From NCBI RefSeq assembly GCF_025643275.1, contig NZ_CP089977.1, positions 1,860,001-1,892,000 of the forward strand: a stretch of 32,000 nt of DNA, in the 5' to 3' direction. Under the pieces are notes generated by a model. That model ran no database searches, was not told the DNA's origin, and worked only from the letters and a program-made list of their open reading frames with translations. Positions 1,838-23,790 of this stretch are shown here, piece after piece. Each line of letters begins with the position of its first letter. Positions within the stretch are counted from its first letter, which is position 1. A program made the translations under genes and the position numbers. The DNA comes from Moraxella nasicaprae (GTDB lineage Bacteria > Pseudomonadota > Gammaproteobacteria > Pseudomonadales > Moraxellaceae).

Positions 1838-2185
1838 TCATGATTTTGGCGACAAAGCATTTTTTGGTAAGCCAAAACCGTGCCAGCCATAGTGCATAAA
1901 ATTGCGGATATTGGCATGGTCATCGCCATCAGGATTGTCTAAAACAGCACGATAATGCTCGGCAAACAAAGTTAGAGTGTCGATTTGATTTAAACCATGC
2001 AGTTTGGCAAGACTGAATACTTTGGCACTGCCTTCATTGGTGCCAGCAGGATTGGTCACTTCGCCATTGCTAAATTCAACAGGGGTGTAGTGATAATGTG
2101 TTTCAATAAAAGACAGTACATCGGCAAATTTTAGGCTGCCATTACTGACACCCGCTAGGATTTTTGAAATGTCTGTGGCTTGCAT
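1838..2185 (-). CDS. HopJ type III effector family protein (small conserved protein of unknown role)
   Basis: The block NPAGTNEGSAKVFSLAKLHGL...LFAEHYRAVLDNPDGDDHANIRNFMHYGWHGF matches the HopJ family signature as I recall it. Start placed at the ATG (MQATD) behind a GGAAGA Shine-Dalgarno sequence, not at the upstream TTG. Confidence 0.7.
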   Translation of the reverse strand: MQATDISKILAGVSNGSLKFADVLSFIETHYHYTPVEFSNGEVTNPAGTNEGSAKVFSLAKLHGLNQIDTLTLFAEHYRAVLDNPDGDDHANIRNFMHYGWHGFGLPKNALSPKS

Positions 2186-2211
2186 CAGGATATCTTCCAA
2201 AAGTCAAAAAA

Positions 2212-2460
2212 TTAACGGTTAAAATAATCGTCATCGTCAAATGATGGTGGGGCAAAGTTACCTTGTTCTAGATGGCTCATGTGCATTTGCATAGAGCGTT
2301 CGTGCTGAATGCGTTGATAGATTTCTTCACGATGAACGGCGATGTCTTTTGGGGCATTGACACCCAAACGAACTTGATTGCCTTTAACGCCAAGTACGGT
2401 AACGCTGACTTCATCACCAATCATCAAGGTTTCGCCAACACGGCGGGTTAGAATTAGCAT
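2212..2460 (-). CDS. csrA: carbon storage regulator CsrA with extended C-terminal tail
   Basis: [52 protein letters not shown] is canonical CsrA. Start set at MLILTRR with an AGGAG Shine-Dalgarno sequence. The 29-aa upstream ORF extension is discarded. Confidence 0.9.
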
Positions 2461-2544
2461 AAGATTAGCTCCTGTGTGAGAAATATGACCGATTTTGTTC
2501 TTGTACCATGATGTTCCAGTCATTTTATCGGTCTTAATATAAGG

Positions 2545-2592
2545 CAAATAAAAATCTGCCTAATGCAATATTATAAAACGCATTAGGCAGAT
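2545..2592 (-). terminator. rho-independent terminator after lysC
   Basis: 13-bp perfect stem: atctgcctaatgc (2554-2566) pairs with gcattaggcagat (2580-2592). The loop is 13 nt and a T-run follows on the minus strand. Confidence 0.8.
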
Positions 2593-2660
2593 TGTCAGTA
2601 ACTTTACAATGATTTTGTGTATTTTTTATGCAACAAAATCCAACAAAAAGTTAGCTAAGA

Positions 2661-3947
2661 TTACAGACCAGCTACTTTGCTTTCGCCATCTTCACGGTCA
2701 AGACCAAATGCGGTGTGCAAAGATTTGACAGCTTTTTCTAGATGCTGCTCTTGAATAAGAACAGAAACCTTGATTTCTGAGGTTGAAATCATTTGTAGGT
2801 TGATGTTCTCTGAGGCTAGGGTTTCAAACATTTTGCTGGCAACACCTGCATGAGAACGCATGCCTACACCAACGATAGAAACTTTGACGACTTTATCATC
2901 GCCAACGATTTGGGTAGCACCGATGTCGTCTTTTACTTTTTCTTCTAAGATTTTGATGGCTTTATCAAAATCGCCACGAGGTACAGTAAAACTAAAATCG
3001 GTCACGCCATTTTCAGCGATATTTTGGATAATCATATCGACTTCAATGTTGGCAGCACCAATAGGGCTTAAAATGGCAGAAGCAATGCCTGGACGGTCAG
3101 GCACGCCAAGTAGTGCAATTTTGGCTTCATCACGGTTAAAGGCAATGCCTGAAATAACAGCGCGTTCCATATCATCTCCTTCATCAACGGTAATCAAAGT
3201 ACCGACATTTTGTTTAAATTCTTCATCAAAAGCACCATCGGTGCCTTCATCAAAACTAGACAGTACACGAAGCGGTACTTTGTATTTGCCTGCAAATTCA
3301 ACCGAGCGGATTTGAAGAACTTTTGAGCCTAATGATGCCATTTCTAGCATTTCTTCAAAGGTGATTTTGCCCAGTTTTTTGGCTTTTGAGGTAACTCGTG
3401 GGTCGGTGGTGTAAACGCCATCAACATCGGTGTAGATTTGACATTCGTCAGCACCAATGGCGGCAGCGATGGCAACCCCTGTGGTGTCTGAACCGCCACG
3501 ACCTAGTGTAGTTAGGTCATTGTTTTTATTGACACCCTGAAAACCTGCCACGATGATGACTTTGCCTTCTGCCAACTCTTTTTTAATGTTGTCAGCGTCG
3601 ATATGCTCAATGCGTGCCTTGGTGTGGGTTTCATCGGTCTTGATGGCAACTTGACGACCTGTCATTGATTTGGCGTCCACACCCAAATCTTTGAGTGTCA
3701 TTGCAAGTAGGGCGATGGAGACCTGCTCGCCTGTGGCAACCATCTGGTCGTATTCTCGTGGGTCAGGGTCGTTTGAGATTTCTCTTGCCAAGCCAATGAG
3801 TCGGTTGGTTTCACCGCTCATTGCCGATACCACGACCACTACTTGATGACCGTGATCATGCCAACGCTTGACACGCGCTGCGACATTTTTGATGCGGCTG
3901 GTGTTACCCATTGAAGTGCCGCCATATTTTTGTACGATTAGTGCCAT
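2661..3947 (-). CDS. lysC: aspartate kinase
   Basis: MALIVQKYGGTSMG, VVVVSAMSGETNRL, LGRGGSDTT, and a C-terminal pair of ACT-like regions. Confidence 0.95.
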   Translation of the reverse strand: MALIVQKYGGTSMGNTSRIKNVAARVKRWHDHGHQVVVVVSAMSGETNRLIGLAREISNDPDPREYDQMVATGEQVSIALLAMTLKDLGVDAKSMTGRQVAIKTDETHTKARIEHIDADNIKKELAEGKVIIVAGFQGVNKNNDLTTLGRGGSDTTGVAIAAAIGADECQIYTDVDGVYTTDPRVTSKAKKLGKITFEEMLEMASLGSKVLQIRSVEFAGKYKVPLRVLSSFDEGTDGAFDEEFKQNVGTLITVDEGDDMERAVISGIAFNRDEAKIALLGVPDRPGIASAILSPIGAANIEVDMIIQNIAENGVTDFSFTVPRGDFDKAIKILEEKVKDDIGATQIVGDDKVVKVSIVGVGMRSHAGVASKMFETLASENINLQMISTSEIKVSVLIQEQHLEKAVKSLHTAFGLDREDGESKVAGL

Positions 3948-10525: not shown

Positions 10526-10684
10526 GCATGACAGCATTGATAGCATTGTTTCATTACCAATGAAGTAATATTTGTAATATTTATTTACATTTTCTCAACT
10601 GAAAATCATTATCTCATCTCACTATAATAAACTCATTCAAGGCGTGATGCCTTGATGGTTTCACTTAATCATGAGGATAATACA

Positions 10685-11083
10685 ATGAAAAAATTAGCCA
10701 CCATCACAATGATTGCTTTGACTGGACTATCTACCGCTGCATTCGCCGCAGGTGCTCAATCGGACGCCCGTACCGCTCACAAAAATGCCGTCAAAACCCG
10801 CACCGTGACTTATGCTTGTCAAGACCATCAAAAAGTAGCGGTTAAGTATGGCTTTAATAAACGCAACCAGCCAACTTATGCAGAAGCCAATCTAGATGGT
10901 AAGAGACGCTTTATGCCAATCAACTACAACAATAGCGATGCGACTGCTACTGAGTTTGGCGATGAGAATAATTATAGCGTGTTGTCTGATAAGATTACTT
11001 ATAAGACCGCTCGCAAAGGCTCAATCCAAATCCAATCGCCTGACAGCACTATCTTATACAAAAACTGTAAAGCAGTTAAATAA
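10685..11083 (+). CDS. secreted hypothetical protein, possibly MliC-like lysozyme-inhibitor fold
   Basis: Start set at MKKLATITMIALTGLSTAAFA (signal peptide) behind a GAGGA Shine-Dalgarno sequence. The mature part has a Cys near each end (VTYACQD ... YKNCK) and beta-rich spacing reminiscent of MliC. The family call is tentative. Confidence 0.6.
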   Translation: MKKLATITMIALTGLSTAAFAAGAQSDARTAHKNAVKTRTVTYACQDHQKVAVKYGFNKRNQPTYAEANLDGKRRFMPINYNNSDATATEFGDENNYSVLSDKITYKTARKGSIQIQSPDSTILYKNCKAVK

Positions 11084-13268: not shown

Positions 13269-13305
13269 TCGCTATATTTACGATATATTGACAAATTACC
13301 CAAAA

Positions 13306-13343
13306 TGAGTACAATTAGAAAATTTTGTACCTATATTGAGTAC
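13306..13343. promoter_or_regulatory. candidate operator in the XRE / WYL divergent intergenic region
   Basis: Inverted repeat GTACAA-N10-TTGTAC at 13309-13330. Direct repeat TGAGTAC at 13306-13312 and 13337-13343, 31 bp apart. No promoter hexamers assigned. Confidence 0.3.
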
Positions 13344-13441
13344 GATTTTTTTTGGGTGATATTGCTACTAAAAATCATCTTGTTCATCAAGAATGTTATG
13401 ATATATTGATAATTTTATCTTATGAAATAGGAAATCAATCA

Positions 13442-14329
13442 ATGAGCAAATCGCTGCATGAAAAATTGGCATATCGACTGGCGGATATACTAACCATGCT
13501 CAATACTGGCGAGAGTTTATCAGTCGATGATTTGGCACAAAAATATCAAGTCAGTCGCCGAACCATCATGCGAGATATTGATGAGCGTCTGGCGTTCTTA
13601 CCCTTAGAAAAACAAGCGGGTCACTATCGATTGTCGGTGAATTATCTTGGACAGCTAAGCTACAAAGACATTCGCAATTTTGCTCAGATTTCTGGCATTG
13701 CTAAGCTATATCCCAATCTTGATGTTTCTTTTTTAAGAGAGATTTTAGACGAAAGAGCCGCGCAGGTGTATTCGGTCAAAGGCTATACATTTGAAGATGC
13801 TACGCAGTTTGAGGATTTAATTAGCCAAATTAAACAATCAATTCAGGAACAGCGTGAGATTTCTTTTGTATATAAAGGTGGTTCAAGACAGGTCAAACCA
13901 TACCAAATCGTTCATCATCGAGGGTGCTGGTATTTGGCGGCGGTCAAAGATGATGAATTGAAAGCCTATCGCCTAAGCAGAATGAGCAAGCTGTCTATTT
14001 TGGCACAAAAATTTGATGTTCAAACCGAATTTGTAGAACAACTCAAACAAAGTGAGAGTATTTGGTTTGGCAAAAATAAAGTTGAAGTTATCTTAAAAGT
14101 TAACGCAACAGTGGCTGCTCATTTTGCTCAAAGAAAGCTGTTGCCAGAGCAAAAATTAATCAAGGAACTGGATAATGGAGATTTGTTGTTATCTAGTGTG
14201 ATTGTTGATGAAAAACAGATTTTTCCTTTGGTTCGCTATTGGCTGCCGCATCTAAAAATCATCAGTCCAGATGGCTGGCAAGAACGATTGGAAGATGGGC
14301 TAAAAGATTATCTTGGTATGGGAGAGTGA
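13442..14329 (+). CDS. HTH + WYL domain transcriptional regulator (BrxR/CapW-like architecture)
   Basis: N-terminal DeoR-like HTH (LSVDDLAQKYQVSRRTIMRDIDE). Central WYL block (RQVKPYQIVHHRGCWYLAAVKDDELKAYRLSRM). Start trimmed to MSKSL. Confidence 0.85.
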   Translation: MSKSLHEKLAYRLADILTMLNTGESLSVDDLAQKYQVSRRTIMRDIDERLAFLPLEKQAGHYRLSVNYLGQLSYKDIRNFAQISGIAKLYPNLDVSFLREILDERAAQVYSVKGYTFEDATQFEDLISQIKQSIQEQREISFVYKGGSRQVKPYQIVHHRGCWYLAAVKDDELKAYRLSRMSKLSILAQKFDVQTEFVEQLKQSESIWFGKNKVEVILKVNATVAAHFAQRKLLPEQKLIKELDNGDLLLSSVIVDEKQIFPLVRYWLPHLKIISPDGWQERLEDGLKDYLGMGE

Positions 14330-14330
14330 G

Positions 14331-14537
14331 ATGTCATTTATTACCCCTAATATTTCGACGCCAAAGAAGTTTAAATGCACCAGCTGTGGCAAAGTGTACA
14401 CTAAGATGACAGAAGACCCGATGCCTCTACTGCATTTATTTACAAAATCAGATACGCCTCAGGAAGGTAAATGTGATGATTGCAAAAGTCTGACCGAAAA
14501 ACTTCTATCACTGGCAAAGTTTAGTGTGATTCGTTGA
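14331..14537 (+). CDS. small zinc-ribbon-like protein (CxxC...CxxC)
   Basis: MSFITPNISTPKKFKCTSCGK...GKCDDCKS. A GGAGAG Shine-Dalgarno sequence. The ATG lies 1 nt after the WYL gene stop, so the two are translationally coupled. Confidence 0.6.
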   Translation: MSFITPNISTPKKFKCTSCGKVYTKMTEDPMPLLHLFTKSDTPQEGKCDDCKSLTEKLLSLAKFSVIR

Positions 14538-14603: not shown

Positions 14604-14885
14604 ATGATTCCAATGTTGAACATATCAGATTTAACGACATTTCCTTGTACAGCTTGTGGTCAATGCTGTCGACGAATTCATCTTAGTGAAATGACAGCAT
14701 TTTTGGACAGAGGGGACGGTATTTGTCACCATTTGGATTGTCAGACAAATTTGTGTCAGATTTATAATGACAGACCGCTGGTTTGTCGAGTGGAGGACTA
14801 TTATAAAACTTATCTTATCAATCAAATTTCTTGGGAGGAGTTTGTTGACATCAATGTGCAAGTGTGTAAAAACTTGCAAAACTAA
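14604..14885 (+). CDS. YkgJ family cysteine-cluster (Zn/Fe-chelating) protein
   Basis: The CxxCxxCC motif (FPCTACGQCCRR) plus downstream Cys residues (ICHHLDCQTNLCQIYNDRPLVCR) are typical of the UPF0153/YkgJ family. Confidence 0.75.
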   Translation: MIPMLNISDLTTFPCTACGQCCRRIHLSEMTAFLDRGDGICHHLDCQTNLCQIYNDRPLVCRVEDYYKTYLINQISWEEFVDINVQVCKNLQN

Positions 14886-14966: not shown

Positions 14967-15821
14967 ATGAATGCCAAGCAAAGAGTTGAGCGGTTAATCA
15001 AACAGGCTCAGTTAATTTTGAAAGAAAAAAAACATCAATTAGACACAAATAACGAGTCAGAGACCCCTGTTGTTGCAACTTGGGGTTTGATGAACGCAGG
15101 TAAAAGTTATTTGCTAAATATGCTAACTCATAATATTGATAAAGAATATTTTAAAACGAATGACATTAGGGAAACTGCCGAAGTTCATCGACTGGTTGCG
15201 GATGGTTGCGTATTTTTGGACACTCCTGGTTTAGATGCCAATGCCGAAGATAATGCAGAAGCTTTAAAGGGTGTGGCGCAGGCAGATGTGGTGCTATTTG
15301 TTCATCAGCTACAAGGTGAATTAGAGCAGGTAGAAGTTGATTTTCTTAAAGAGGTGGCAAATTCTTTTGGCAAATATGCTTCTGAAAATATCATTATTGT
15401 CATTAGTAAAATTGATAAAGAATCACCAGAAAAAGTTAAAGAAATTCAGGAGAAAATCCTAAAACAATGCCGTGACGAACTAGGATTTTCACCACAATGT
15501 TTTCAAATCTCCAATACTCGCTATCACAAAGGCGAGAAAGAGCATAAAGATGTGCTGATTGAGCAAAGTCATATTTTACTTCTAAGAGACCATATCCAAA
15601 AGCTCATCAAGGAAAATGCTAATCATGTTAGAAAGCAAAGAAAAAATCATAAACTACAACAGTATCAGACTGAATTGGTGGCTATTGAGCGAGAGTTGAA
15701 GCAGTTGCAGACAGAGATATTTACGCCATATTATCAAGCTTTGAAAAAAGTCGATGACCATATCCTTGATGTGATCAGACCCGAAGTCAAAGCTCGTGAA
15801 AAGCAATACAATGAACTATGA
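14967..15821 (+). CDS. minimal dynamin-family P-loop GTPase (G domain plus coiled-coil tail)
   Basis: G1 GLMNAGKS, G3 FLDTPGLDA, G4-like VISKIDK. The C-terminal roughly 90 aa are K/E/Q-rich and helical. AGGAG Shine-Dalgarno sequence. Confidence 0.85.
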   Translation: MNAKQRVERLIKQAQLILKEKKHQLDTNNESETPVVATWGLMNAGKSYLLNMLTHNIDKEYFKTNDIRETAEVHRLVADGCVFLDTPGLDANAEDNAEALKGVAQADVVLFVHQLQGELEQVEVDFLKEVANSFGKYASENIIIVISKIDKESPEKVKEIQEKILKQCRDELGFSPQCFQISNTRYHKGEKEHKDVLIEQSHILLLRDHIQKLIKENANHVRKQRKNHKLQQYQTELVAIERELKQLQTEIFTPYYQALKKVDDHILDVIRPEVKAREKQYNEL

Positions 15822-15833
15822 TGAGAGATTGGT

Positions 15834-16586
15834 ATGTGGAAATATTTACTTGGTGGAAGTATTCCAACTACAACAGCAAGAAACCCTATTGAAGAAAGAA
15901 TTGTTAAAAAAACACTTTCGAGTGTTTTAGGTAATAATGATGGTGATTATGACGACGATGACGGCGAGGATCTTGAAGAGGCACGCCGAGAAAAAGCTCG
16001 TTCAGAGATTTTAACTTCACTAAGTGAATACTTAGAAAAAGAAGGGAATCAGCTGATGAGCATCTTGGTTGAGCAAGGCATTGTTCAGTCGATGGTGTGT
16101 AAGCCTTATGTGGTACCTGCACGTGTTTCACTCTTCGGGTGGTTACCTATAACATTAGGGATGGAGATTAGAGTTTTCACAAATGATAAAAGTGCTCGTG
16201 ATTCATTGCGTGCGAGTGAAGATGTATTTAAACCTTTATCGATCCTCGGTAATGGTAAAAGAATTGAAGAACATTCACTACCAAGTTTTATAGAAAACTC
16301 TATTCAAAACATTGATTTAAATCAAGTATTGGATAAATCAGGCAAAAAATCTGAACTCGGTCGTGTGTTTGCCACTTCTAAGAAGTGGGCGTATTTTGCT
16401 CCCACCAAAGGAGCTGATAACCAGCGATTTATTTTCCAGAGAGTGACTGCCAATTTTTATTCATTGTATGATTGTGTTTTGACACCAACTGATGAATTTT
16501 GTCAGGATATGGAGCTGTTATCCCAGCTTGATGACGCATTGCAAAAAATTGAACAAGAAGTACATCAGATAACTAAATCGGTCTGA
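15834..16586 (+). CDS. paralog family member 1 (no hydrophobic N-terminus; poly-Asp tract; conserved N and C modules)
   Basis: 250 aa. GDYDDDDGEDLEEARREKARSEILTSLSEYLEKEGNQLMSIL ... FIFQRVTANFYSLYDCVLTPTDEFCQDMELLS. No family recognised. Confidence 0.8.
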   Translation: MWKYLLGGSIPTTTARNPIEERIVKKTLSSVLGNNDGDYDDDDGEDLEEARREKARSEILTSLSEYLEKEGNQLMSILVEQGIVQSMVCKPYVVPARVSLFGWLPITLGMEIRVFTNDKSARDSLRASEDVFKPLSILGNGKRIEEHSLPSFIENSIQNIDLNQVLDKSGKKSELGRVFATSKKWAYFAPTKGADNQRFIFQRVTANFYSLYDCVLTPTDEFCQDMELLSQLDDALQKIEQEVHQITKSV

Positions 16587-16622
16587 TGTTCAATACATTT
16601 ATTATCTTTTAGGAGTATAAAG

Positions 16623-17555
16623 ATGGCATTACCATTCTTGATTGGCGGTGCTGTGCTAGTTGGCGGAGCTTTGCTTGCTGCTGCTAGTAGCTCTGGTGGA
16701 AACTATGATGACGACGATGATGGCGAGGATCTTGAAGAGGCACGCCGAGAAAAAGCTCGTTCAGAGATTTTAACTTCACTAAGTGAATACTTAGAAAAAG
16801 AAGGGAATCAGCTGATGAGCATCTTGGCTGAGCAAGGCATTGTTCAGCCGATGGTGTGTAAGCCTTATGTGGCAACCATTAAAAAACCTGATGCATTGTT
16901 GGTTAGAATTTTTTCAAGAGCAAATAATGGCAAGGGTGTCAATTCCCAGAATCAATCAAGAGTTCCAATGCCAAGACGACGCAATCATGAACCAAGATTT
17001 AATGATTGGAATTCATCAATATTAGATCATGGGTTGAATTATGGCGGGAATAGACCAAGACGACGCAATCATGAACCAAGATTTAATGATTGGAATTCAT
17101 CAATATTAGATCATGGGTTGAATTATGGCGGGAATAGACCAAGACGACGCAATCATGAACCAGGATTTAATTATTGGAGTTCATCAATATTAGATCATGG
17201 GTTGATTTATGGTGGGAATAGACCAAGACGACGCAATTATGTAGTTGATGATAGAATTAAAAAAGGTTTGTTATCGGATTTTATCGAGCGCTCCATGACA
17301 CCTAATGAATCGGGCAGCATGTCAGCACTTGGCCATGTTTTTGCTACTTCTAAGAAATGGGCGTATTTTGCTCCAAAAAAAGGAGCTGATAACCAGCGAT
17401 TTATTTTCCAGCGAGTGACTGCCAATTTTTATTCACTGTATGATTGTGTTTTGACACCAACTGATGAATTTTGTCAGGATATGAGATTGCTTTCGAGAAT
17501 TAATACTACTTTGCGGAAAATTTCGCAAGAAACACATCAAACCAAACCGGTCTGA
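16623..17555 (+). CDS. paralog family member 2 (Gly/Ala hydrophobic N-terminus, poly-Asp, 28-aa tandem repeats in centre)
   Basis: 310 aa. MALPFLIGGAVLVGGALLAAASSSGGNYDDDDDGEDLEE... The centre holds 3.2 copies of RPRRRNHEPRFNDWNSSILDHGLNYGGN. The C-terminal module is conserved. AGGAG Shine-Dalgarno sequence. Confidence 0.85.
   Translation: MALPFLIGGAVLVGGALLAAASSSGGNYDDDDDGEDLEEARREKARSEILTSLSEYLEKEGNQLMSILAEQGIVQPMVCKPYVATIKKPDALLVRIFSRANNGKGVNSQNQSRVPMPRRRNHEPRFNDWNSSILDHGLNYGGNRPRRRNHEPRFNDWNSSILDHGLNYGGNRPRRRNHEPGFNYWSSSILDHGLIYGGNRPRRRNYVVDDRIKKGLLSDFIERSMTPNESGSMSALGHVFATSKKWAYFAPKKGADNQRFIFQRVTANFYSLYDCVLTPTDEFCQDMRLLSRINTTLRKISQETHQTKPV
16971..17237 (+). repeat. in-frame 84-bp tandem repeat, about 3.2 copies, inside paralog 2
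   Basis: Units start at 16971, 17055, 17139 and 17223 (partial). Units 1 and 2 read identical by eye. Unit 3 has a handful of substitutions. Confidence 0.9.
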
Positions 17556-17591
17556 TGTTCAATATATTTATTATCTGTTAGGAGTATAAAG

Positions 17592-18320
17592 ATGCCATTA
17601 CCATTATTGATTGGCGGTGCTCTACTTGGCGGAGCTTTACTTGCTGCTGGTAGCTCTGGTGGAAACCATGACGACGATGACGACGAGGATCTTGAAGAGG
17701 CACGCCGAGAAAAAGCTTGTTCAGAGATTCTAACTTCACTAAGTGAATACTTGGAAAAAGAAGGGAATCAGCTGATGAGCATCTTGGCTGAGCAAGGCAT
17801 TGTTCAGTCGATGGTGTGTAAGTCTGATGTGGCAACCATTGGAAAGCCTGATGTATTGTCGGTTAGAATTTTCGCAAGAAATAATCGGCGTGCCAATACT
17901 CCAATTTCATCTCCATCAGTATCTGGTGCATCATTTGGTTTTGCCGTTAATAGTATCTTTGGTGTCCTCCTTGGTAACTCGACTCAAAAAATCAAAGAGT
18001 ATTCACTGTCAAGTTTTATAGAAAACTCTATTCAAAACATTGATTTAAATCAAGTATTGGATAAATCAGACAAAAAATCTGAACTTGGTCGTGTGTTTGC
18101 CACTTCTAAGAAATGGACGCATTTTGCTCCAAAAAAAGGAGTTGATACTCATCGATTTATTTTCCAGCGAGTGACTGCCAATTTTTATTCACTGTATGAT
18201 TGTGTTTTGACACCAACTGATGAATTTTGTCAGGATATGGAGCTGTTATCCCGGCTTGATGACACATTGCAAAAAATTAAACAAGAAGTACGTCAGATAA
18301 ATAAATCTTTAATACATTGA
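17592..18320 (+). CDS. paralog family member 3 (Gly/Ala hydrophobic N-terminus, poly-Asp)
   Basis: 242 aa. MPLPLLIGGALLGGALLAAGSSGGNHDDDDDEDLEE... The centre is unique or mosaic. The C-terminal module is conserved. AGGAG Shine-Dalgarno sequence. Confidence 0.85.
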   Translation: MPLPLLIGGALLGGALLAAGSSGGNHDDDDDEDLEEARREKACSEILTSLSEYLEKEGNQLMSILAEQGIVQSMVCKSDVATIGKPDVLSVRIFARNNRRANTPISSPSVSGASFGFAVNSIFGVLLGNSTQKIKEYSLSSFIENSIQNIDLNQVLDKSDKKSELGRVFATSKKWTHFAPKKGVDTHRFIFQRVTANFYSLYDCVLTPTDEFCQDMELLSRLDDTLQKIKQEVRQINKSLIH

Positions 18321-18341
18321 TTATCTTTTAGGAGTATAAAG

Positions 18342-18938
18342 ATGCCATTACCATTATTGATTGGCGGTGCCGCTCTACTTGGTGGAGCTTTGCTTGCTGC
18401 TGCTAGTAGCTCTGGTGGAAACTATGACGACGATGATGACGGCGAGGATCTTGAAGAGGCACGCCGAGAAAAAGCTCGTTCAGAGATTCTAACTTCACTA
18501 AGTGAATACTTAGAAAAAGAAGGGAATCAGCTGATGAGTGTCTTGACTGAGCAGGGTATTCTTGAACCAACCTCATGCTCGTTTGAGACAGATGATATCG
18601 ACTTAGATGATGAGTTGGAAATCTGTGTTTTTGATAGAGATGACATGAAGGAAAGTCAATTTGAGCTACTCCTTGATGAAGCCATTGAAGACATGGATCA
18701 TTATAGAGATCATGAAGTCAATCTCTTTAAGCAGACGATTCGTTACAAATATCTTAATAGAATTCAGCCCGATGCCCAATCTGTATTTCAAAGAGTGTCG
18801 GTGAACTTTTATTCATTGTATAAAAATTCATTGTATAGCAATGGTTTTACACTCACTGAGGAGTTTCGCCAAGATATGAGATTGCTGTCAAAAATTGATA
18901 AAGAGCTATACAAAATCAAACAGCAGGCCGACACCTAG
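18342..18938 (+). CDS. paralog family member 4 (Gly/Ala hydrophobic N-terminus, poly-Asp, acidic divergent centre)
   Basis: 198 aa. Same N-terminal module. The C-terminal module has diverged (VFQRVSVNFYSLYKNS...LTEEFRQDMRLLS). Confidence 0.85.
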   Translation: MPLPLLIGGAALLGGALLAAASSSGGNYDDDDDGEDLEEARREKARSEILTSLSEYLEKEGNQLMSVLTEQGILEPTSCSFETDDIDLDDELEICVFDRDDMKESQFELLLDEAIEDMDHYRDHEVNLFKQTIRYKYLNRIQPDAQSVFQRVSVNFYSLYKNSLYSNGFTLTEEFRQDMRLLSKIDKELYKIKQQADT

Positions 18939-18973
18939 GCGAATTATTAAACTAAATCTCTTGGGAGGATAAA

Positions 18974-19492
18974 ATGTCCCTTAGTGCAAAAGAAGCTCAA
19001 ATATTATTAGACGAATACTTGGAGATGAGCAAAAGGCAATTGATGGATATTTTATCCAGCCATGGGATTGCTCAGCCAAGGCAATACACTTCCGCTGTCC
19101 AACTTTCTGAAAATCGTCATCGGTCTTTATTTGACAGAAATGATAAAAATGAAATATTTGGCGTATCGTTAGAAAGAACGATTGTGGAGATTAGCCGAGT
19201 TATTGAAACCAGTCGTGCCATCGATGCTGTTTCAGGTGCCACCTTTGATGATGATATTCTTGATGGTACTGATGATTATGCTTATCGATATTTTTTAAAC
19301 ACCATTGCTGACTCTCAACGATGGTCGCATCTTAATTTACTAAAAAGCGATGCTCAACGACTTTTCCAAAGAGTGATTTTTAATTTTGGTGTGTTGTATG
19401 AATCTGGTTTGGTACTAACAGATGAATTCTTACAGGACATCAGATTGCTTTTGGAAATCAATGACCTGCTAAAAGAAATTGCTGGTTCTTAG
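18974..19492 (+). CDS. paralog family member 5 (most diverged; lacks the hydrophobic and poly-Asp N-terminus)
   Basis: 172 aa. It retains only the cores EYLE..QLM.IL...GI.Q and LFQRVIFNFGVLYESGLVLTDEFLQDIRLLL. GGGAGG Shine-Dalgarno sequence. Confidence 0.8.
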   Translation: MSLSAKEAQILLDEYLEMSKRQLMDILSSHGIAQPRQYTSAVQLSENRHRSLFDRNDKNEIFGVSLERTIVEISRVIETSRAIDAVSGATFDDDILDGTDDYAYRYFLNTIADSQRWSHLNLLKSDAQRLFQRVIFNFGVLYESGLVLTDEFLQDIRLLLEINDLLKEIAGS

Positions 19493-19523
19493 TGATGATT
19501 TAAACAATAAAGAGGTATATATT

Positions 19524-21356
19524 ATGACACAACATACAATATTTAGAGAGCAGATGTTGGAGACTTTTGAAAATCTCAAGCAGGATTTTGCTCAAGCCTT
19601 AAAAGATGCTAAGCAACAAGAGCAAAATTTTGATACAGCTCTCAATCAATTTCAAAAAAATACTTTGGCTCATATTGCCAATTCCAGCAGTCAGCTTTCA
19701 TCAGAAAACCCACTATCGCCAGCCTTGCAACAAATCAATGCAACCTTGCAAAGCACCATTGGTAAATGGAATGAAAAAATTCAGCAGCAGGATAAGGGCG
19801 TAGGTTTTCGTTCTGGCTTCAATGATTCTTTATTGGTATTTGTGTATGGTAAAGTAAAGTCGGGAAAAAGCTCACTGGGCAACTATGTGGCGTGGGGCAA
19901 TACAGATCCAACACCTGAATTGCAAAAAAGTATTGATGTCAGATTTCACCCAGAATATTTTTCTGGCGAAAGAGCTGAATTTAAATATGGAGATGCGGAG
20001 CGAGAAGCTGAAAAAAATAAAAGTTTCCGTGTCGGTGCAACAGAAGCAACCAGTTCAATCCAGGGTTTTAGCTTGTCGGGTTTGACTTGGGTGGATTCTC
20101 CAGGTCTGCATTCGGTCAATGCTCAAAATGGTGATTTGGCAAAACAGTATGTTGAGCATTCGGATTTGATTTTGTACACCATGAAGTCCGATTCTCCGGG
20201 CAGGGAGTCGGATATCAGGGAGATTTTGGAGCTGTATAGAGCGGATAAAAAAATCCTACTACTTATCACAGGCAGTGATGATACAGATGAAGATGTCAAT
20301 AGCAAGGGTGAATTGGTTCAAGTCATTGTGATGAAAGACAAGGAACGCCGCCAAAGACAAATCAATCATGTGCGAGAGACTTTGGAGAAATTGCCAGAGT
20401 TGCAAGGTAAGACAGATAATATTGATATCATTTCTTTTTCTGCCAGATATGCACAGATGAACGCGGATAATGCGGTCAATTTCCATGACAGCGGCATGGG
20501 GCAGTTGTTTGAAAAATTACACCAAGTTGCCAGTGAAGAGGGTGTTAAATTAAAACAAAAAGTTCCTATGTTGAATTTCAAGCACTACATTAACGGCTTT
20601 GCCCAAGATGTCAGTGATATTGAGACTGCATTAGAAGAATTGCACCAACCGATTCAAAGAATCCAAAGAGAAGTTCCTAGATTGGTGGGCGATGAAATTA
20701 GACACATTCAATCTACCATGTATGATATTTTGCATGAAAGATTTGATGCCATCATTGCCAATCGAGAAGATAGTGCAAGCCAGGTGGAAGCTGCATTAAA
20801 TCAATTGCAAGCAACGCTACAAGAAAAGCACAATCAGCTATTTGATGAATCGCAGACCAAAATCATTACTCAGATATTATCTGAAATGGAACAAGGATTG
20901 ACCGACAGCATCAAGAACAATGCAACTTTGAGTATTCCTAAGTTTCAAATTGAGACTGTAAGAGTGGCAGAGGGTAAATATGTGGCTGGCAACAGAGGCT
21001 CCAGTGCGGCGATAGGTGCGGCAACAGGTGCAGCGATTGGCTCGGCGATACCTGTGGTGGGTACAGCCATAGGTGGTTTTGTCGGCGGTTTTGTCGGTGG
21101 TCTCTTGGGTAGGTCTTCCCGCAGGGAGACAAGGTATGTCTATGAGCGTTCTGGGGATAATCTGATGTCCATTCGCCAAGCCATCAGTAGTCAACTTCAA
21201 GACATCACCAGAGAGCATATGGGAGAGTTTCAGCAGGTGTTGATAGAGAGAACTCTAAAAACAGCCACAGATTTGCAGTTAAGCATTGAGCAAGAAATTG
21301 GGTTGTTCAAAAGTGCTGTAAATAATATTCAAAACGAGATTGAGGCAAAATTGTAA
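19524..21356 (+). CDS. dynamin-like GTPase with helical stalk and Gly-zipper membrane paddle (LeoB/LeoBC-like)
   Basis: G1 VYGKVKSGKSS, G3 WVDSPGLHS, G4-like LLITGSDD. Long helical regions. Hydrophobic Gly-rich segment GSSAAIGAATGAAIGSAIPVVGTAIGGFVGGFVGGLLG. Start set at MTQHTIF behind an AGAGG Shine-Dalgarno sequence. Confidence 0.88.
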   Translation: MTQHTIFREQMLETFENLKQDFAQALKDAKQQEQNFDTALNQFQKNTLAHIANSSSQLSSENPLSPALQQINATLQSTIGKWNEKIQQQDKGVGFRSGFNDSLLVFVYGKVKSGKSSLGNYVAWGNTDPTPELQKSIDVRFHPEYFSGERAEFKYGDAEREAEKNKSFRVGATEATSSIQGFSLSGLTWVDSPGLHSVNAQNGDLAKQYVEHSDLILYTMKSDSPGRESDIREILELYRADKKILLLITGSDDTDEDVNSKGELVQVIVMKDKERRQRQINHVRETLEKLPELQGKTDNIDIISFSARYAQMNADNAVNFHDSGMGQLFEKLHQVASEEGVKLKQKVPMLNFKHYINGFAQDVSDIETALEELHQPIQRIQREVPRLVGDEIRHIQSTMYDILHERFDAIIANREDSASQVEAALNQLQATLQEKHNQLFDESQTKIITQILSEMEQGLTDSIKNNATLSIPKFQIETVRVAEGKYVAGNRGSSAAIGAATGAAIGSAIPVVGTAIGGFVGGFVGGLLGRSSRRETRYVYERSGDNLMSIRQAISSQLQDITREHMGEFQQVLIERTLKTATDLQLSIEQEIGLFKSAVNNIQNEIEAKL

Positions 21357-21366
21357 CAGGTGTATC

Positions 21367-23004
21367 ATGACTAATGATTTTCAAGAATTGTTCAACACTT
21401 ATGACGATGTCAAGGCTCTTGTTGAAAAAGATGATAGTCAGCAACAGGATTTTGGGTCTGTCGCTAAGTGGTTTGAAGAAAAAAAGAAAAATCCTCAACT
21501 GTCCATCATGGTTTATGGGGTTTATAATGCTGGTAAGAGTACTTTTATCAATGCATTGCTCGGAGAAGAATTGGCAGCTACCGACGACATTCCGCTAACT
21601 GCCAAAGTATCTGCATATCGGTATAAAAATTATGAGATTTTAGACACACCAGGCATTGATGCACCCATTGAACATGAAAGAATTGCTGATGAGCAGTTAC
21701 TAAAATCTGACATTGTTTTGTTTGTTGTCAATCCATCAGGTGTGGTGGAGGAACAGGCAACGCTTGATAAGCTATTGTTTTTAATTGAAAAGCAAAAAAA
21801 GATTTTTTTGATTTTTAATGAAAAGCACGACTTGCAAGAGACGGATCGTATCAAATTAAAAGATCAAACTTATGCCCTAATACAGGAAAAGGCTGGTCAA
21901 AAAAATATGCATGATGTGCTTAAAGACATTCCAATTTATACCGTAAATGCAAAGCGTGCATTAAATGGTAAAAAGAAAAATAATACTCAGCTGATTGAAA
22001 TGAGTCGTATTTTGGAGGTTGAGCAAGCGATAGATAGATTTATTGATGACACTATTGAGTCTAATGATGTTTATTCATCACTTAAAACCAGTTTGCATAA
22101 TTATTTAGATGGATATATCAATCATCTGGATATTACAAACAATAGTGATGATGTCAAGAAAGCGTATAATAATGTTTTAAAAGAAATTGCTACCTGCAAT
22201 GCATCAGTCAAAGGACTGGCTAAGAGAGATATTAAAGATGCATCTTATGAATTAAAAGAACGGGTTGAAAGCTTGCTTTTATCTGCATTAAGTGGTGAAA
22301 ACGCCAATATGGAACAGCAGATTGAAGGGTTGATTAACCAACAAGTTCAGCGTGTAGATATGAGCGTCACAGATGCATTGAATGATGCAATTTTACGCAT
22401 TGGTAAATATACTGATGAATTAGAATTAATGCTTCCACAGACTTCCAGTCTAAATATTCGATTGGATAATTTTAGCCCCAATCATGATTTAGAGAAATCA
22501 TCTACTGCTTATGATGGTACTGGGATTAACACATCGTTATTGCAAAGCGGTATGCATATCATTGATCAGTTGGGCGTTGAGGGCATTCGTCAATCGCTTG
22601 CTGGCATTAAGATGATTGCACCAGATTTAATGAAAGGAATTGGCAATGTTGCCATGAAAAGAATGGCTGAGAATATTGTTAGATTTGCAGCCCCTATTGT
22701 TAGTGTTATTTCCATTGGAATGGAATTATGGAATGAACACAAGCAAAGAGAGGCGATGGAAAGACAGATGGAGGAGGAAAGACGAGCTAGAGAAAGATAC
22801 ATAGCTCAATGCCGAGATGCATCTAGAAAGTTGGCTGATGATTTTCAGATGAATCTATATCGGGAGTGGCAAAGCCAGATAGATGGATTTTTCCTACCAT
22901 GGCAACAAAAATTTCAAGAACAAAATGAGATTTTAGATGGTGAAAGTCAAGAATTGTCTTTGTTGATTATGCAGCTAAGTCAGTTAAAGGCGAAATTGGC
23001 ATAG
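21367..23004 (+). CDS. dynamin-like GTPase (LeoA-like)
   Basis: G1 VYGVYNAGKST, G3 ILDTPGIDA, G4-like IFNEKHD. Helical stalk. Hydrophobic segment IVRFAAPIVSVISIGMELW followed by a charged coiled-coil tail. Start set at MTNDFQ, 10 nt after the previous stop. Confidence 0.88.
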   Translation: MTNDFQELFNTYDDVKALVEKDDSQQQDFGSVAKWFEEKKKNPQLSIMVYGVYNAGKSTFINALLGEELAATDDIPLTAKVSAYRYKNYEILDTPGIDAPIEHERIADEQLLKSDIVLFVVNPSGVVEEQATLDKLLFLIEKQKKIFLIFNEKHDLQETDRIKLKDQTYALIQEKAGQKNMHDVLKDIPIYTVNAKRALNGKKKNNTQLIEMSRILEVEQAIDRFIDDTIESNDVYSSLKTSLHNYLDGYINHLDITNNSDDVKKAYNNVLKEIATCNASVKGLAKRDIKDASYELKERVESLLLSALSGENANMEQQIEGLINQQVQRVDMSVTDALNDAILRIGKYTDELELMLPQTSSLNIRLDNFSPNHDLEKSSTAYDGTGINTSLLQSGMHIIDQLGVEGIRQSLAGIKMIAPDLMKGIGNVAMKRMAENIVRFAAPIVSVISIGMELWNEHKQREAMERQMEEERRARERYIAQCRDASRKLADDFQMNLYREWQSQIDGFFLPWQQKFQEQNEILDGESQELSLLIMQLSQLKAKLA

Positions 23005-23010
23005 TGTCTA

Positions 23011-23043
23011 TACAACAGCAGCATTTTGCTGCTGTTGTATTTT
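23011..23043 (+). terminator. rho-independent terminator closing the GTPase operon
   Basis: 12-bp perfect stem: tacaacagcagc pairs with gctgctgttgta. The loop is 5 nt and TTTT follows. Confidence 0.85.
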
Positions 23044-23145: not shown

Positions 23146-23790
23146 ATGACATTGGAAATTTCCCAGTTTTATCAAGATAATCGCCATCAATATCCACAAT
23201 CCATTCGTCTGCGTATCCATCGTGCATTAAGTTGGCTTGAACAAGCTGAGCGTAGTGACGATTTGGATAGTAGATTTATTTTCCTATGGATTGCGTTTAA
23301 TGCCATTTATGCCAACGATTTATCACACATCAGAAATACCGACAAAGGGGCTTTTGTTGAGTTTTTATATCGCATTTGTCAGTTCGATGTGGATAGTAAA
23401 ATCTATCATTTGATTTGGAATACATATTCTGGCAATATCCGTGTATTACTGGATAATCGTTATACTTTTCAGCCTTTTTGGGATTATCAAAATGGGTTGA
23501 TTAGCGAAAGGGCGTGGCAAGAGGATTTTGAGCTTAGTCAAAAAAAGGCCTATAACGCACTTGCTAGCAAGGATACGGTTGTTATTTTGACGGCTTTATT
23601 TTCGCATATTTATACATTGCGTAATCAGATTGTGCATGGCGGAGCGACACATCATAGTTCTGTCAATCGCCAGCAGGTCAAAGATGCTTGTGCAATTTTA
23701 TCTCGGATTTTGCCATTCATGATTGAAATTATTTTGCAAAATGCGGACAGGGATTGGGGTAAGCCTTTTTATCCTGTGGTTCAAGATTGA
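23146..23790 (+). CDS. HEPN-domain protein (putative RNase; Rx4H motif)
   Basis: 214 aa, all-helical-looking. N-terminal RIHRALSWLEQAE and FIFLWIAFNAIY helices. C-terminal YTLRNQIVHGG is an R-x4-H HEPN signature. AGGAGG Shine-Dalgarno sequence. The HEPN subfamily is not assigned. Confidence 0.7.
   Translation: MTLEISQFYQDNRHQYPQSIRLRIHRALSWLEQAERSDDLDSRFIFLWIAFNAIYANDLSHIRNTDKGAFVEFLYRICQFDVDSKIYHLIWNTYSGNIRVLLDNRYTFQPFWDYQNGLISERAWQEDFELSQKKAYNALASKDTVVILTALFSHIYTLRNQIVHGGATHHSSVNRQQVKDACAILSRILPFMIEIILQNADRDWGKPFYPVVQD

Follow-up and report, generated by a model that had tools for sequence, protein, structure and literature searches.

Eleos, which consists of LeoA and LeoBC, confers GTPase-dependent protection of Bacillus subtilis from jumbo phages (bioRxiv 10.1101/2022.05.11.491447); the name was given in bioRxiv 10.1101/2022.12.12.520048. 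The LeoABC proteins of enterotoxigenic Escherichia coli (ETEC) are structurally dynamins, with LeoC carrying a membrane anchor, and LeoC/LeoB represent a split dynamin-like protein (DLP) with a separate membrane anchor (PMC4159319). In some genomes, WYL proteins flank Eleos (PMC13622015). Here, we analyzed a stretch of 32,000 nucleotides from Moraxella nasicaprae (RefSeq assembly GCF_025643275.1, contig NZ_CP089977.1, positions 1,860,001 to 1,892,000 of the forward strand; hereafter the window, whose own numbering is used throughout), in which five consecutive paralogous genes lie inside an Eleos-like operon. This array probably arose by lineage-specific tandem amplification, from one or two copies to five, of a gene for a small anchored helical subunit of a WYL-regulated operon with three GTPases. 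Sequence exchange by gene conversion or unequal crossover has kept the copies alike in their upstream region, N-terminus and two core helices. Dynamin-like and Eleos systems, WYL control of defence genes and the concerted evolution of tandem paralogues are already known; for the operon variant with a third GTPase and a small-protein family and for the five-copy mosaic array, we found no description in the literature, nor for any tandem array of an accessory gene for Eleos.

The locus resembles Eleos in several respects. Its two adjacent dynamin-like genes, DLP1 and DLP2, match the LeoBC and LeoA profiles of PADLOC over nearly their full length, both proteins contain membrane-paddle segments, related operons have defence neighbourhoods in some genomes, and a WYL association is also seen in some Eleos loci (PMC13622015). 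ETEC, too, has an extra small GTPase-bearing, membrane-anchored piece, LeoC. In contrast to the two-gene definition of Eleos, however, the operon comprises seven conserved gene families, including a third, complete short GTPase, the small anchored helical protein, a zinc-ribbon protein and a CxxCxxCC protein.

The array (15834-19492, + strand) consists of five intact, co-oriented open reading frames (ORFs), named c1 to c5 in their order, which the ORF listing places exactly where the initial annotation of this DNA had put them, with lengths of 250, 310, 242, 198 and 172 aa. None of the five contains a stop codon or a frameshift, and each has its own Shine-Dalgarno (SD) sequence. The first copy, c1 (15834-16586, +; 250 aa), lacks a transmembrane N-terminus, has the N- and C-modules common to c2 and c3, and is 92% identical to c3 in its 3' half. 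c2 (16623-17555, +; 310 aa) combines a transmembrane N-terminus with a basic centre (net charge +18) that is made up largely of an internal tandem repeat (16971-17241, +; 84 nt x 3.2 with 96% matches in Tandem Repeats Finder, also recovered as a repeat family) encoding basic 28-aa units RPRRRNHEPRFNDWNSSILDHGLNYGGN; this repeat is recent and likely length-variable. c3 (17592-18320, +; 242 aa) is a chimera that resembles c2 over its 5' 342 nt, upstream region included, and c1 over its 3' 322 nt. c4 (18342-18938, +; 198 aa) has a transmembrane N-terminus and an acidic centre (net -14); over its first 243 nt and the upstream region it matches c2 at 93% identity, and the remainder is anciently diverged. 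Finally, c5 (18974-19492, +; 172 aa) is without the transmembrane and acidic N-terminus and has kept the motif cores alone. Identity to c1 amounts to 61% for c2, 70% for c3, 46% for c4 and 35% for c5, in line with the described rise of divergence along the array. The centres range from 72 to 185 aa, with net charges of +5 (c1), +18 (c2), +8 (c3), -14 (c4) and -4 (c5). With a pI of 10.8 for the centre of c2 and 4.1 for that of c4, basic and acidic isoforms are encoded together in one operon. In addition, an SD context, ATTTATTATCT.TTAGGAGTATAAAGATG, recurs ahead of c2, c3 and c4 as had been noted before, with AGGAG 7 nt 5' of the ATG and about 25 nt upstream of it included in the repeat.

Two modules recur throughout the array. 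The N-module exchange tract (15946-16113, +), with counterparts at 16705-16872, 17668-17832 and 18429-18563 at a blastn identity of 93-98%, encodes a long helix, DLEEARREKARSEILTSLSEYLEKEGNQLMSIL. The C-module (16427-16533, +; covered by three repeat families, with counterparts at 17399-17505, 18155-18261, 18779-18900 and 19357-19463) encodes the C-terminal helix pair, FQRV..NFYSLY....T.EF.QD..LL. Within the N-module, the 151-nt blocks at 15963-16113 and 16722-16872 show 2 differences and either of them shows 7 relative to 17682-17832, which confirms the near-identity first counted by eye. Blastn joins different pairs of copies over extended tracts, namely 168 nt at 97.6% between c1 and c2 (15946-16113 vs. 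16705-16872), 322 nt at 91.9% between c1 and c3 (16258-16579 vs. 17986-18307), 342 nt at 90.1% between c2 and c3 with the intergenic region included (16587-16928 vs. 17556-17885), and 243 nt at 93.0% between c2 and c4 (16602-16844 vs. 18321-18563). The E-values of these tracts, 1e-56 to 1e-135, exclude chance.

The codon alignment, in which all shared peptides quoted in the initial annotation are present, shows how these relationships alternate along the genes. Over the N-terminal 45 codons, c2, c3 and c4 are at least 92% identical and c1 is unrelated; over the following 30 codons, c1 to c4 are all nearly identical. After the N-module, c2 and c3 remain alike for about 35 further codons. Further on, c1 and c3 are identical at 39/39 and 31/33 positions, where c2 is ~35% identical, and in the C-module c1, c2 and c3 are alike again, followed by a tail common to c1 and c3. 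The nearest relative of c3 changes along the gene, being c2 first and c1 later. The centres had been described as completely different, and this needs correction: c1 and c3 share about 60 centre codons, and c2 and c3 share the roughly 35 codons past the N-module.

The mosaic, non-tree-like sharing of segments that had been proposed is borne out by the statistics. When the "odd one out" among c1, c2 and c3 was followed over 220 variable sites, 61 runs were observed versus 135 ± 6.8 after permutation, and 0 of 100,000 permutations gave a value as low as 61. A GENECONV-like test of the longest identical run gave p <= 5e-5 for c1-c2 and c2-c4, p = 1.5e-4 for c3-c4, and p of about 1-2e-3 for c1-c3 and c2-c3. 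For c1 and c2, synonymous divergence (dS) is 1.3-1.9 in the N-terminus and the centre but drops to 0.18 in the C-module and to 0.00 in the N-module; between c2 and c4, it is 0.30 over the first 90 codons and ~3 in the C-module, though the protein motif is conserved there. Since dS runs from 0 to saturation within one gene pair, the segments must differ greatly in age, which in turn indicates gene conversion or unequal crossover. Together with the partner switch of c3, these jumps rule out purifying selection alone or a simple tree, and the dS contrast is the strongest argument against mere differential constraint. The mosaicism is therefore statistically real and concerted evolution of the array is supported; of the earlier proposal of recent duplication or ongoing gene conversion, recent exchange among the copies is backed by the dS pattern and by the switch in nearest relative. 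We could not derive the array from a single crossover, as c3 is a chimera of a c2-like 5' part and a c1-like 3' part, yet sits after c2 and not between c1 and c2.

Gene conversion is known to drive concerted evolution among tandem paralogues in bacteria, with opa and pilS in Neisseria, the tuf and rrn copies and hsdS shufflons as examples. The array shares with such systems near-identical tracts with abrupt ends, conflicting local phylogenies and a collapse of dS inside the tracts. The locus contains neither silent cassettes with an expression site nor invertible segments, and no recombinase was detected among the operon's ten genes and the ten flanking proteins scanned. Cassette-type antigenic or phase variation was rejected accordingly, given that all copies are complete, SD-bearing ORFs of one orientation within one operon. 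Arrays of orphan modules or immunity genes are likewise a feature of polymorphic toxin systems such as contact-dependent inhibition (CDI) and Rhs, which resemble the present array in their tandem genes with conserved ends and variable parts, in the conflict-related locus and in the recombination between copies. However, no toxin or immunity domains were detected here by Pfam, PADLOC or NCBIfam, the variable part is internal rather than C-terminal, and the family is normally single-copy and GTPase-linked.

A second sample bears on the integrity of the array. Two short-read contigs of Logan SRR23387574 match the ends of the array, at 98.2% and 99.2% identity, and each terminates within the repeated N-module; the comparison covers c1 on one side and the 3' part of c4 to c5 on the other. 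Contigs that break exactly within the repeat are what might be expected if the copies were produced by mis-assembly of one or two genes, an explanation that we nevertheless rejected and consider extremely improbable. The copies differ in length, have unique centres and intact frames and lie within a 2.1 Mb contig, and the second sample backs both ends of the array independently (c1; c4-c5) at 98-99% identity.

The encoded proteins belong to an unannotated family. Scans of the five array proteins against Pfam, NCBIfam and PADLOC yielded no meaningful match. Among 5.8 billion proteins, a word-indexed search retrieved the five alone, all from Moraxella nasicaprae. When 1.84 billion representatives were searched exhaustively with a profile, one fragment from a related strain and four distant relatives, 156-181 aa long, were found in addition. 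A family-profile search yielded 34 further relatives, all unnamed and without a Pfam domain. The family as a whole is absent from Pfam, NCBIfam and PADLOC, and its members are called "hypothetical protein" wherever a source gives a name. The family hidden Markov model (HMM) recovers all five copies in hmmsearch with E-values of 1.9e-15 to 1.3e-49, including the C-terminal L..F..LY.V.L motif.

Family alignments start with a near-invariant N-terminus, MALPWLIGAA, which opens a ~20-residue hydrophobic helix; its first 10 residues are the most conserved stretch of the family (0.5 bit entropy). An acidic/Ser-rich linker, a highly charged helix (ERRRRERAE...), an indel-rich middle and the L..F..LY.V.L motif with a long helix follow in this order. 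The N-module of the initial annotation corresponds to the charged helix, and the C-module to the C-terminal helix pair. Kyte-Doolittle maxima over 19 residues reach 1.9-2.1 at the N-termini of c2, c3 and c4, with no such maximum in c1 or c5. The MxLPxLIG hydrophobic helix and the acidic linker are present in c2, c3 and c4 and absent from c1 and c5; a related locus (L002) likewise encodes a soluble paralogue. The conservation of the first eight residues (M-A/P-L-P-W/F/L-L-I-G; window 16623-16700, 17592-17665 and 18342-18420) goes far beyond what a generic membrane anchor needs. It is conceivable that this N-terminus packs specifically, helix against helix, with the glycine-zipper paddle of DLP1 (residues ~505-545).

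AlphaFold2 models of c3 and c4, built from a 40-sequence family alignment, agree with this division. The c3 model has helices at residues 32-67, 186-201 and 210-241 with a predicted local distance difference test (pLDDT) score of 82-95, and residues 76-139 fall below 50; the c4 model has helices at 35-70, 143-166 and 173-197 (pLDDT 80-91), and residues 83-130 below 50. Across both models, the N-module helix reaches 80-91 and the C-module 82-95, and in c4 a small strand pairing joins the end of the N-module to the C-module loop. The constant modules are thus predicted to pack together as a folded core, with the centre as a poorly determined insertion.

To place the family in other bacteria, loci were gathered with the short GTPase of the operon as anchor. 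This gave 34 loci in metagenomes and 17 in reference genomes, the latter including Moraxella, Enterobacteriaceae, Aeromonas, Shewanella, Wohlfahrtiimonas and several Burkholderiales. The gene order, which scarcely varies, is a WYL gene (~300 aa), a small zinc-ribbon gene, the short GTPase, one small gene (151-199 aa), a DLP of ~610 aa, a DLP of ~550 aa and the CxxCxxCC gene (~90 aa). Every relative whose position could be determined has this placement; in more than 50 loci, the small-protein gene lies directly between the short GTPase and the LeoBC-like gene, and it is this interval that all five copies fill in M. nasicaprae. The four distant relatives, too, each directly follow a GTPase of ~275-290 aa and precede dynamin-like genes of ~616-628 aa and ~556 aa where the contig reaches that far.

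Copy number was determined by running the family HMM over every six-frame ORF of all loci. About 45 independent loci have exactly one copy; the L002 lineage and L038 have two, and the window alone has five. Amplified lineages therefore amount to one with five and two with two copies among about 48. Both two-copy duplications arose independently and involve the same family at the same operon position, but neither pair shows the patchwork of the array. The L038 pair (2166-3486) is anchored in both copies and uniformly 77% identical, a plain duplication; its second copy has a greatly expanded K/R-rich helix. The L002 pair (2152-3329) is ancient and comprises one soluble and one anchored protein. 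As these two have no nucleotide similarity, the duplication must be old and maintained. The best match of c4 is the anchored, transmembrane L002 paralogue (1e-13) and that of c5 is the soluble one (8e-9). By these sequence relationships, the array appears to be composed of two old lineages plus younger, patched copies.

With these data, the forces acting on the copies can be compared. Between the window and SRR23387574, c4 (3' part) and c5 carry 7 synonymous and 1 non-synonymous changes; the counts are 7 and 0 for DLP1 and 6 and 1 for the short GTPase. The c5 protein is identical despite 3 synonymous changes. The 7:1 excess in c4 and c5 indicates that these copies are maintained by selection. 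Among the paralogues, the dN/dS ratio (omega) per segment confirms that the modules are constrained (0.19-0.28). It is 0.35 in the centre segment shared by c1 and c3 and ~1.1 in the alignable centre of c2 and c3 (23 codons), and about 1.1 is reached in two short segments overall. Positive selection in the centres is not shown: omega is significantly above 1 in none of the paralogue segments, and centre dN/dS is uninformative where the centres are unalignable or saturated.

For c1, the comparison gave 2 non-synonymous and 0 synonymous changes. In addition, the second sample has a 10-nt insertion in the N-module of c1 just before the contig end (L008 1470-1520, window ~15975-16020), which may be a c1-inactivating frameshift or a contig-end artefact at the repeat. 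Such observations would fit extra copies that are redundant or decaying, left without distinct function as a neutral by-product of unequal crossover at a repeat-rich locus. The loss of the otherwise near-invariant N-terminus in c1 and c5, the repeat building up in c2, an omega of about 1 in some short segments and the simple two-copy duplication at a uniform 77% in L038 point in the same direction. We consider this neutral origin distinctly unlikely, its main weakness being the 7:1 ratio in c4 and c5 between strains. Moreover, none of the five ORFs has a stop or frameshift, the modules evolve at an omega of 0.2-0.3, and a soluble paralogue has been retained in the L002 lineage as well, where it is old and maintained.

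At the other extreme, the copies could form a selected repertoire, as the initial annotation suggested when it read conserved modules around a variable centre as a set of recognition or specificity variants. Constant frames would plug into the dynamin machine, centres would recognise different triggers, such as phage proteins or membrane states, and recombination would make new combinations. The modules and the variable centre are real, and a repertoire is in keeping with an array in a defence-type operon, five intact ORFs each with its own SD sequence, purifying selection on c4 and c5 between strains, real mosaic exchange and centres that differ greatly in length and in charge (+18 to -14); the omega of 0.35 in the c1-c3 segment indicates that at least part of the centre is constrained. 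The recognition function itself we regard as an unlikely but tenable reading. That the centres might be linkers without structure is partly what was found, with pLDDT values below 50 in the models and a c2 centre that is largely a tandem repeat. In single-copy orthologues, the middle is indel-rich as well (occupancy 0.07-0.43 relative to c4 residues 91-120), so a variable centre is no peculiarity of the array. Positive selection, which would speak for a repertoire, gave no signal either, and amplification is so rare, with one five-copy and two two-copy lineages among about 48, that a repertoire is not intrinsic to the working of the system. In a bolder version, an undescribed Eleos-like immune machine with three GTPases would use the small protein as the subunit that senses the trigger or sets specificity, and amplification and gene conversion would have given M. 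nasicaprae a sensor repertoire of three anchored and two soluble isoforms, whose centres extend from strongly basic to strongly acidic. We view it with considerable doubt; if true, the array would parallel, in bacteria, the tandem and conversion-prone clusters of paralogues in animal immune GTPase systems.

A SulP transporter gene and mnmA flank the ~10-kb set of co-directional genes in which the array is embedded. The first operon gene encodes an HTH-WYL transcriptional regulator (13352-14329, +; Pfam WYL 1.1e-12 and HTH_11 4e-9, PADLOC WYL 1.2e-30), and a ~300-aa WYL gene holds the same position in related loci. The best promoter-like site of the promoter scan (11/12; 13288-13315) lies ahead of it. 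Next comes a 74-aa CxxC...CxxC zinc-ribbon-like protein (14313-14537, +), assigned by its sequence and as a conserved small operon member; an ORF of ~60-90 aa takes its position in L002 and most genome loci. It is followed by a 93-aa CxxCxxCC (YcgN-like) cysteine-cluster protein (14604-14885, +; Pfam PF03692, 8.8e-7). This gene lies upstream of the short GTPase here, in contrast to nearly all other loci, where it is directly downstream of the second dynamin-like gene, indicating that the operon was rearranged in the M. nasicaprae lineage. Its positions elsewhere are, for example, 14907-15185 in L010 and 14787-15050 in L011. The short GTPase (14967-15821, +; 284 aa; Pfam MMR_HSR1 5.6e-11 and Dynamin_N 6.9e-9, PADLOC LeoA 4.9e-28) has a complete G domain and a C-terminal helical tail without a membrane segment.

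Downstream of the array, DLP1 (LeoBC-like, ~610-625 aa; 19479-21356, +) matches Pfam Dynamin_N (1.3e-9) and Gly-zipper (3.8e-6) as well as PADLOC LeoBC (3.3e-20), of which positions 7-566 of 601 are covered; its likely ATG is at 19524, and the glycine-zipper membrane paddle spans residues ~505-545. DLP2 (LeoA-like, ~545-554 aa; 21340-23004, +) covers positions 37-524 of 559 of PADLOC LeoA (2.2e-38) and has weak sequence matches in the PDB to LeoA (4AUR), a C. jejuni DLP (5OWV) and the bacterial dynamin-like protein BDLP (2J68). Pfam Dynamin_N was found for all three operon GTPases, and the flanking genes qualify as bacterial dynamin-like proteins, in which a dynamin-type G domain precedes a helical stalk with a hydrophobic paddle. 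A terminator-like hairpin after DLP2 (23016-23031) is the only convincing one on the + strand in the terminator scan, with none inside the array.

On the PADLOC LeoA profile (559 positions), the short GTPase covers 16-288, the N-terminal half. One possible explanation is that it provides the G domain and first helices of a third DLP in two pieces, with the small protein supplying a paddle and a tail resembling the GTPase effector domain (GED), and with the paralogues as alternative C-terminal halves. The LeoC/LeoB pair would be a precedent for a split DLP with a separate anchor (PMC4159319). In an hhalign comparison, family positions 17-128 (hydrophobic and ER-rich helix) aligned to DLP2 residues 415-533 (paddle and charged helix) with an E-value of 2.6e-4. 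However, the hhalign probability of this alignment is 42%, and its basis is a hydrophobic segment plus a charged helix of low complexity; hhalign gave no match to DLP1 or to the short GTPase, Foldseek detected no dynamin stalk, and the anchor sits at the extreme N-terminus, in an order of elements unlike that of a DLP paddle. We hold a split dynamin to be rather improbable and retain it as a lead. A match to the Mx1 stalk in the PDB profile search had an E-value of 0.18 and is not evidence.

Lineage-specific amplification with exchange among the copies can be set out as a probable course of events. M. nasicaprae would have possessed two old paralogue types, one anchored like c4 and one soluble like c5, with c1 to c3 as younger copies that arose, and were patched time and again, through unequal crossover and gene conversion. 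Exchange would run across the longest identical stretches, namely the upstream SD region, the transmembrane/acidic N-terminus, the N-module and the C-module. Selection to fit one set of single-copy partners may keep the modules alike, as suggested by their omega of 0.2-0.3, and the core formed by the N- and C-modules could be the docking surface for the single-copy GTPase partners. The N-terminal helix would anchor the complex in the inner membrane, and within the dynamin machine the small protein would be a membrane adaptor or a regulatory subunit. The middle would remain free to vary in length (72-185 aa), in charge (+18 to -14) and through the expansion of internal repeats.

Several observations weigh against this picture. 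The five-copy array is known from one complete genome, and a pairwise homoplasy index (PHI) test on four taxa, with 37 informative sites, did not reach significance (p = 0.08). The absence of the anchor from c1 and c5 is not explained by a simple membrane adaptor. Foldseek found no structural relatives of the c3 and c4 models in the PDB, and a PDB sequence profile search gave nothing significant (best E = 0.14). With respect to Eleos, the cutoff of NCBIfam NF041922 (LeoA/HP0731) was missed, with 19.9 versus 325 bits and the 625-aa protein as sole match; "Eleos" therefore denotes resemblance here and not demonstrated membership. Likewise, a defence role of the operon is plausible, but we infer it indirectly from profile matches, the WYL regulator and the neighbours, and 5/8 loci tested have no PADLOC-recognisable defence neighbour. 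Such neighbours were found in the other three (3/8).

With respect to Eleos and LeoABC, the locus draws attention to an operon variant, conserved yet unannotated, in which a third GTPase and a dedicated small anchored partner occur. The array may serve as a natural experiment, in which the homogenised parts (N-terminus, long helix and C-terminal helix pair) mark what must fit the single-copy partners and the parts left free mark what can vary, leading to testable predictions on interfaces and specificity. If the copies are functionally distinct, they would represent a rare intra-operon, recombining subunit repertoire in bacterial immunity.

Among individual neighbourhoods, the operon lies beside a type I restriction-modification system with SoFic in L013 (1855-8225), beside DruE with a type I restriction-modification system in L025 (77-5628) and beside a NERD/UvrD helicase in L018 (15763-17403). 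A scan of viral contigs for the operon was empty and hence gave no sign of a phage-borne operon. In the window, the operon is followed by a gene for a 214-aa HEPN-like protein with an RNQIVH motif (23146-23790, +; Pfam RiboL-PSP HEPN 4.8e-4, below the cutoff), which may be an accessory effector of the system. Its homologues occur 3' of the operon in six other loci and are recurrent, not universal, with 66% identity in the Moraxella metagenome-assembled genome L009 (15345-15983) and 43-47% in L016 (15608-16282), L032/33/36 (L032 13097-13906) and L042 (7306-7992). Upstream of the island, a 143-aa ORF (10652-11083) that is unrelated to the array matches Pfam Nm-ACP (ACP-like) with an E-value of 5e-33.

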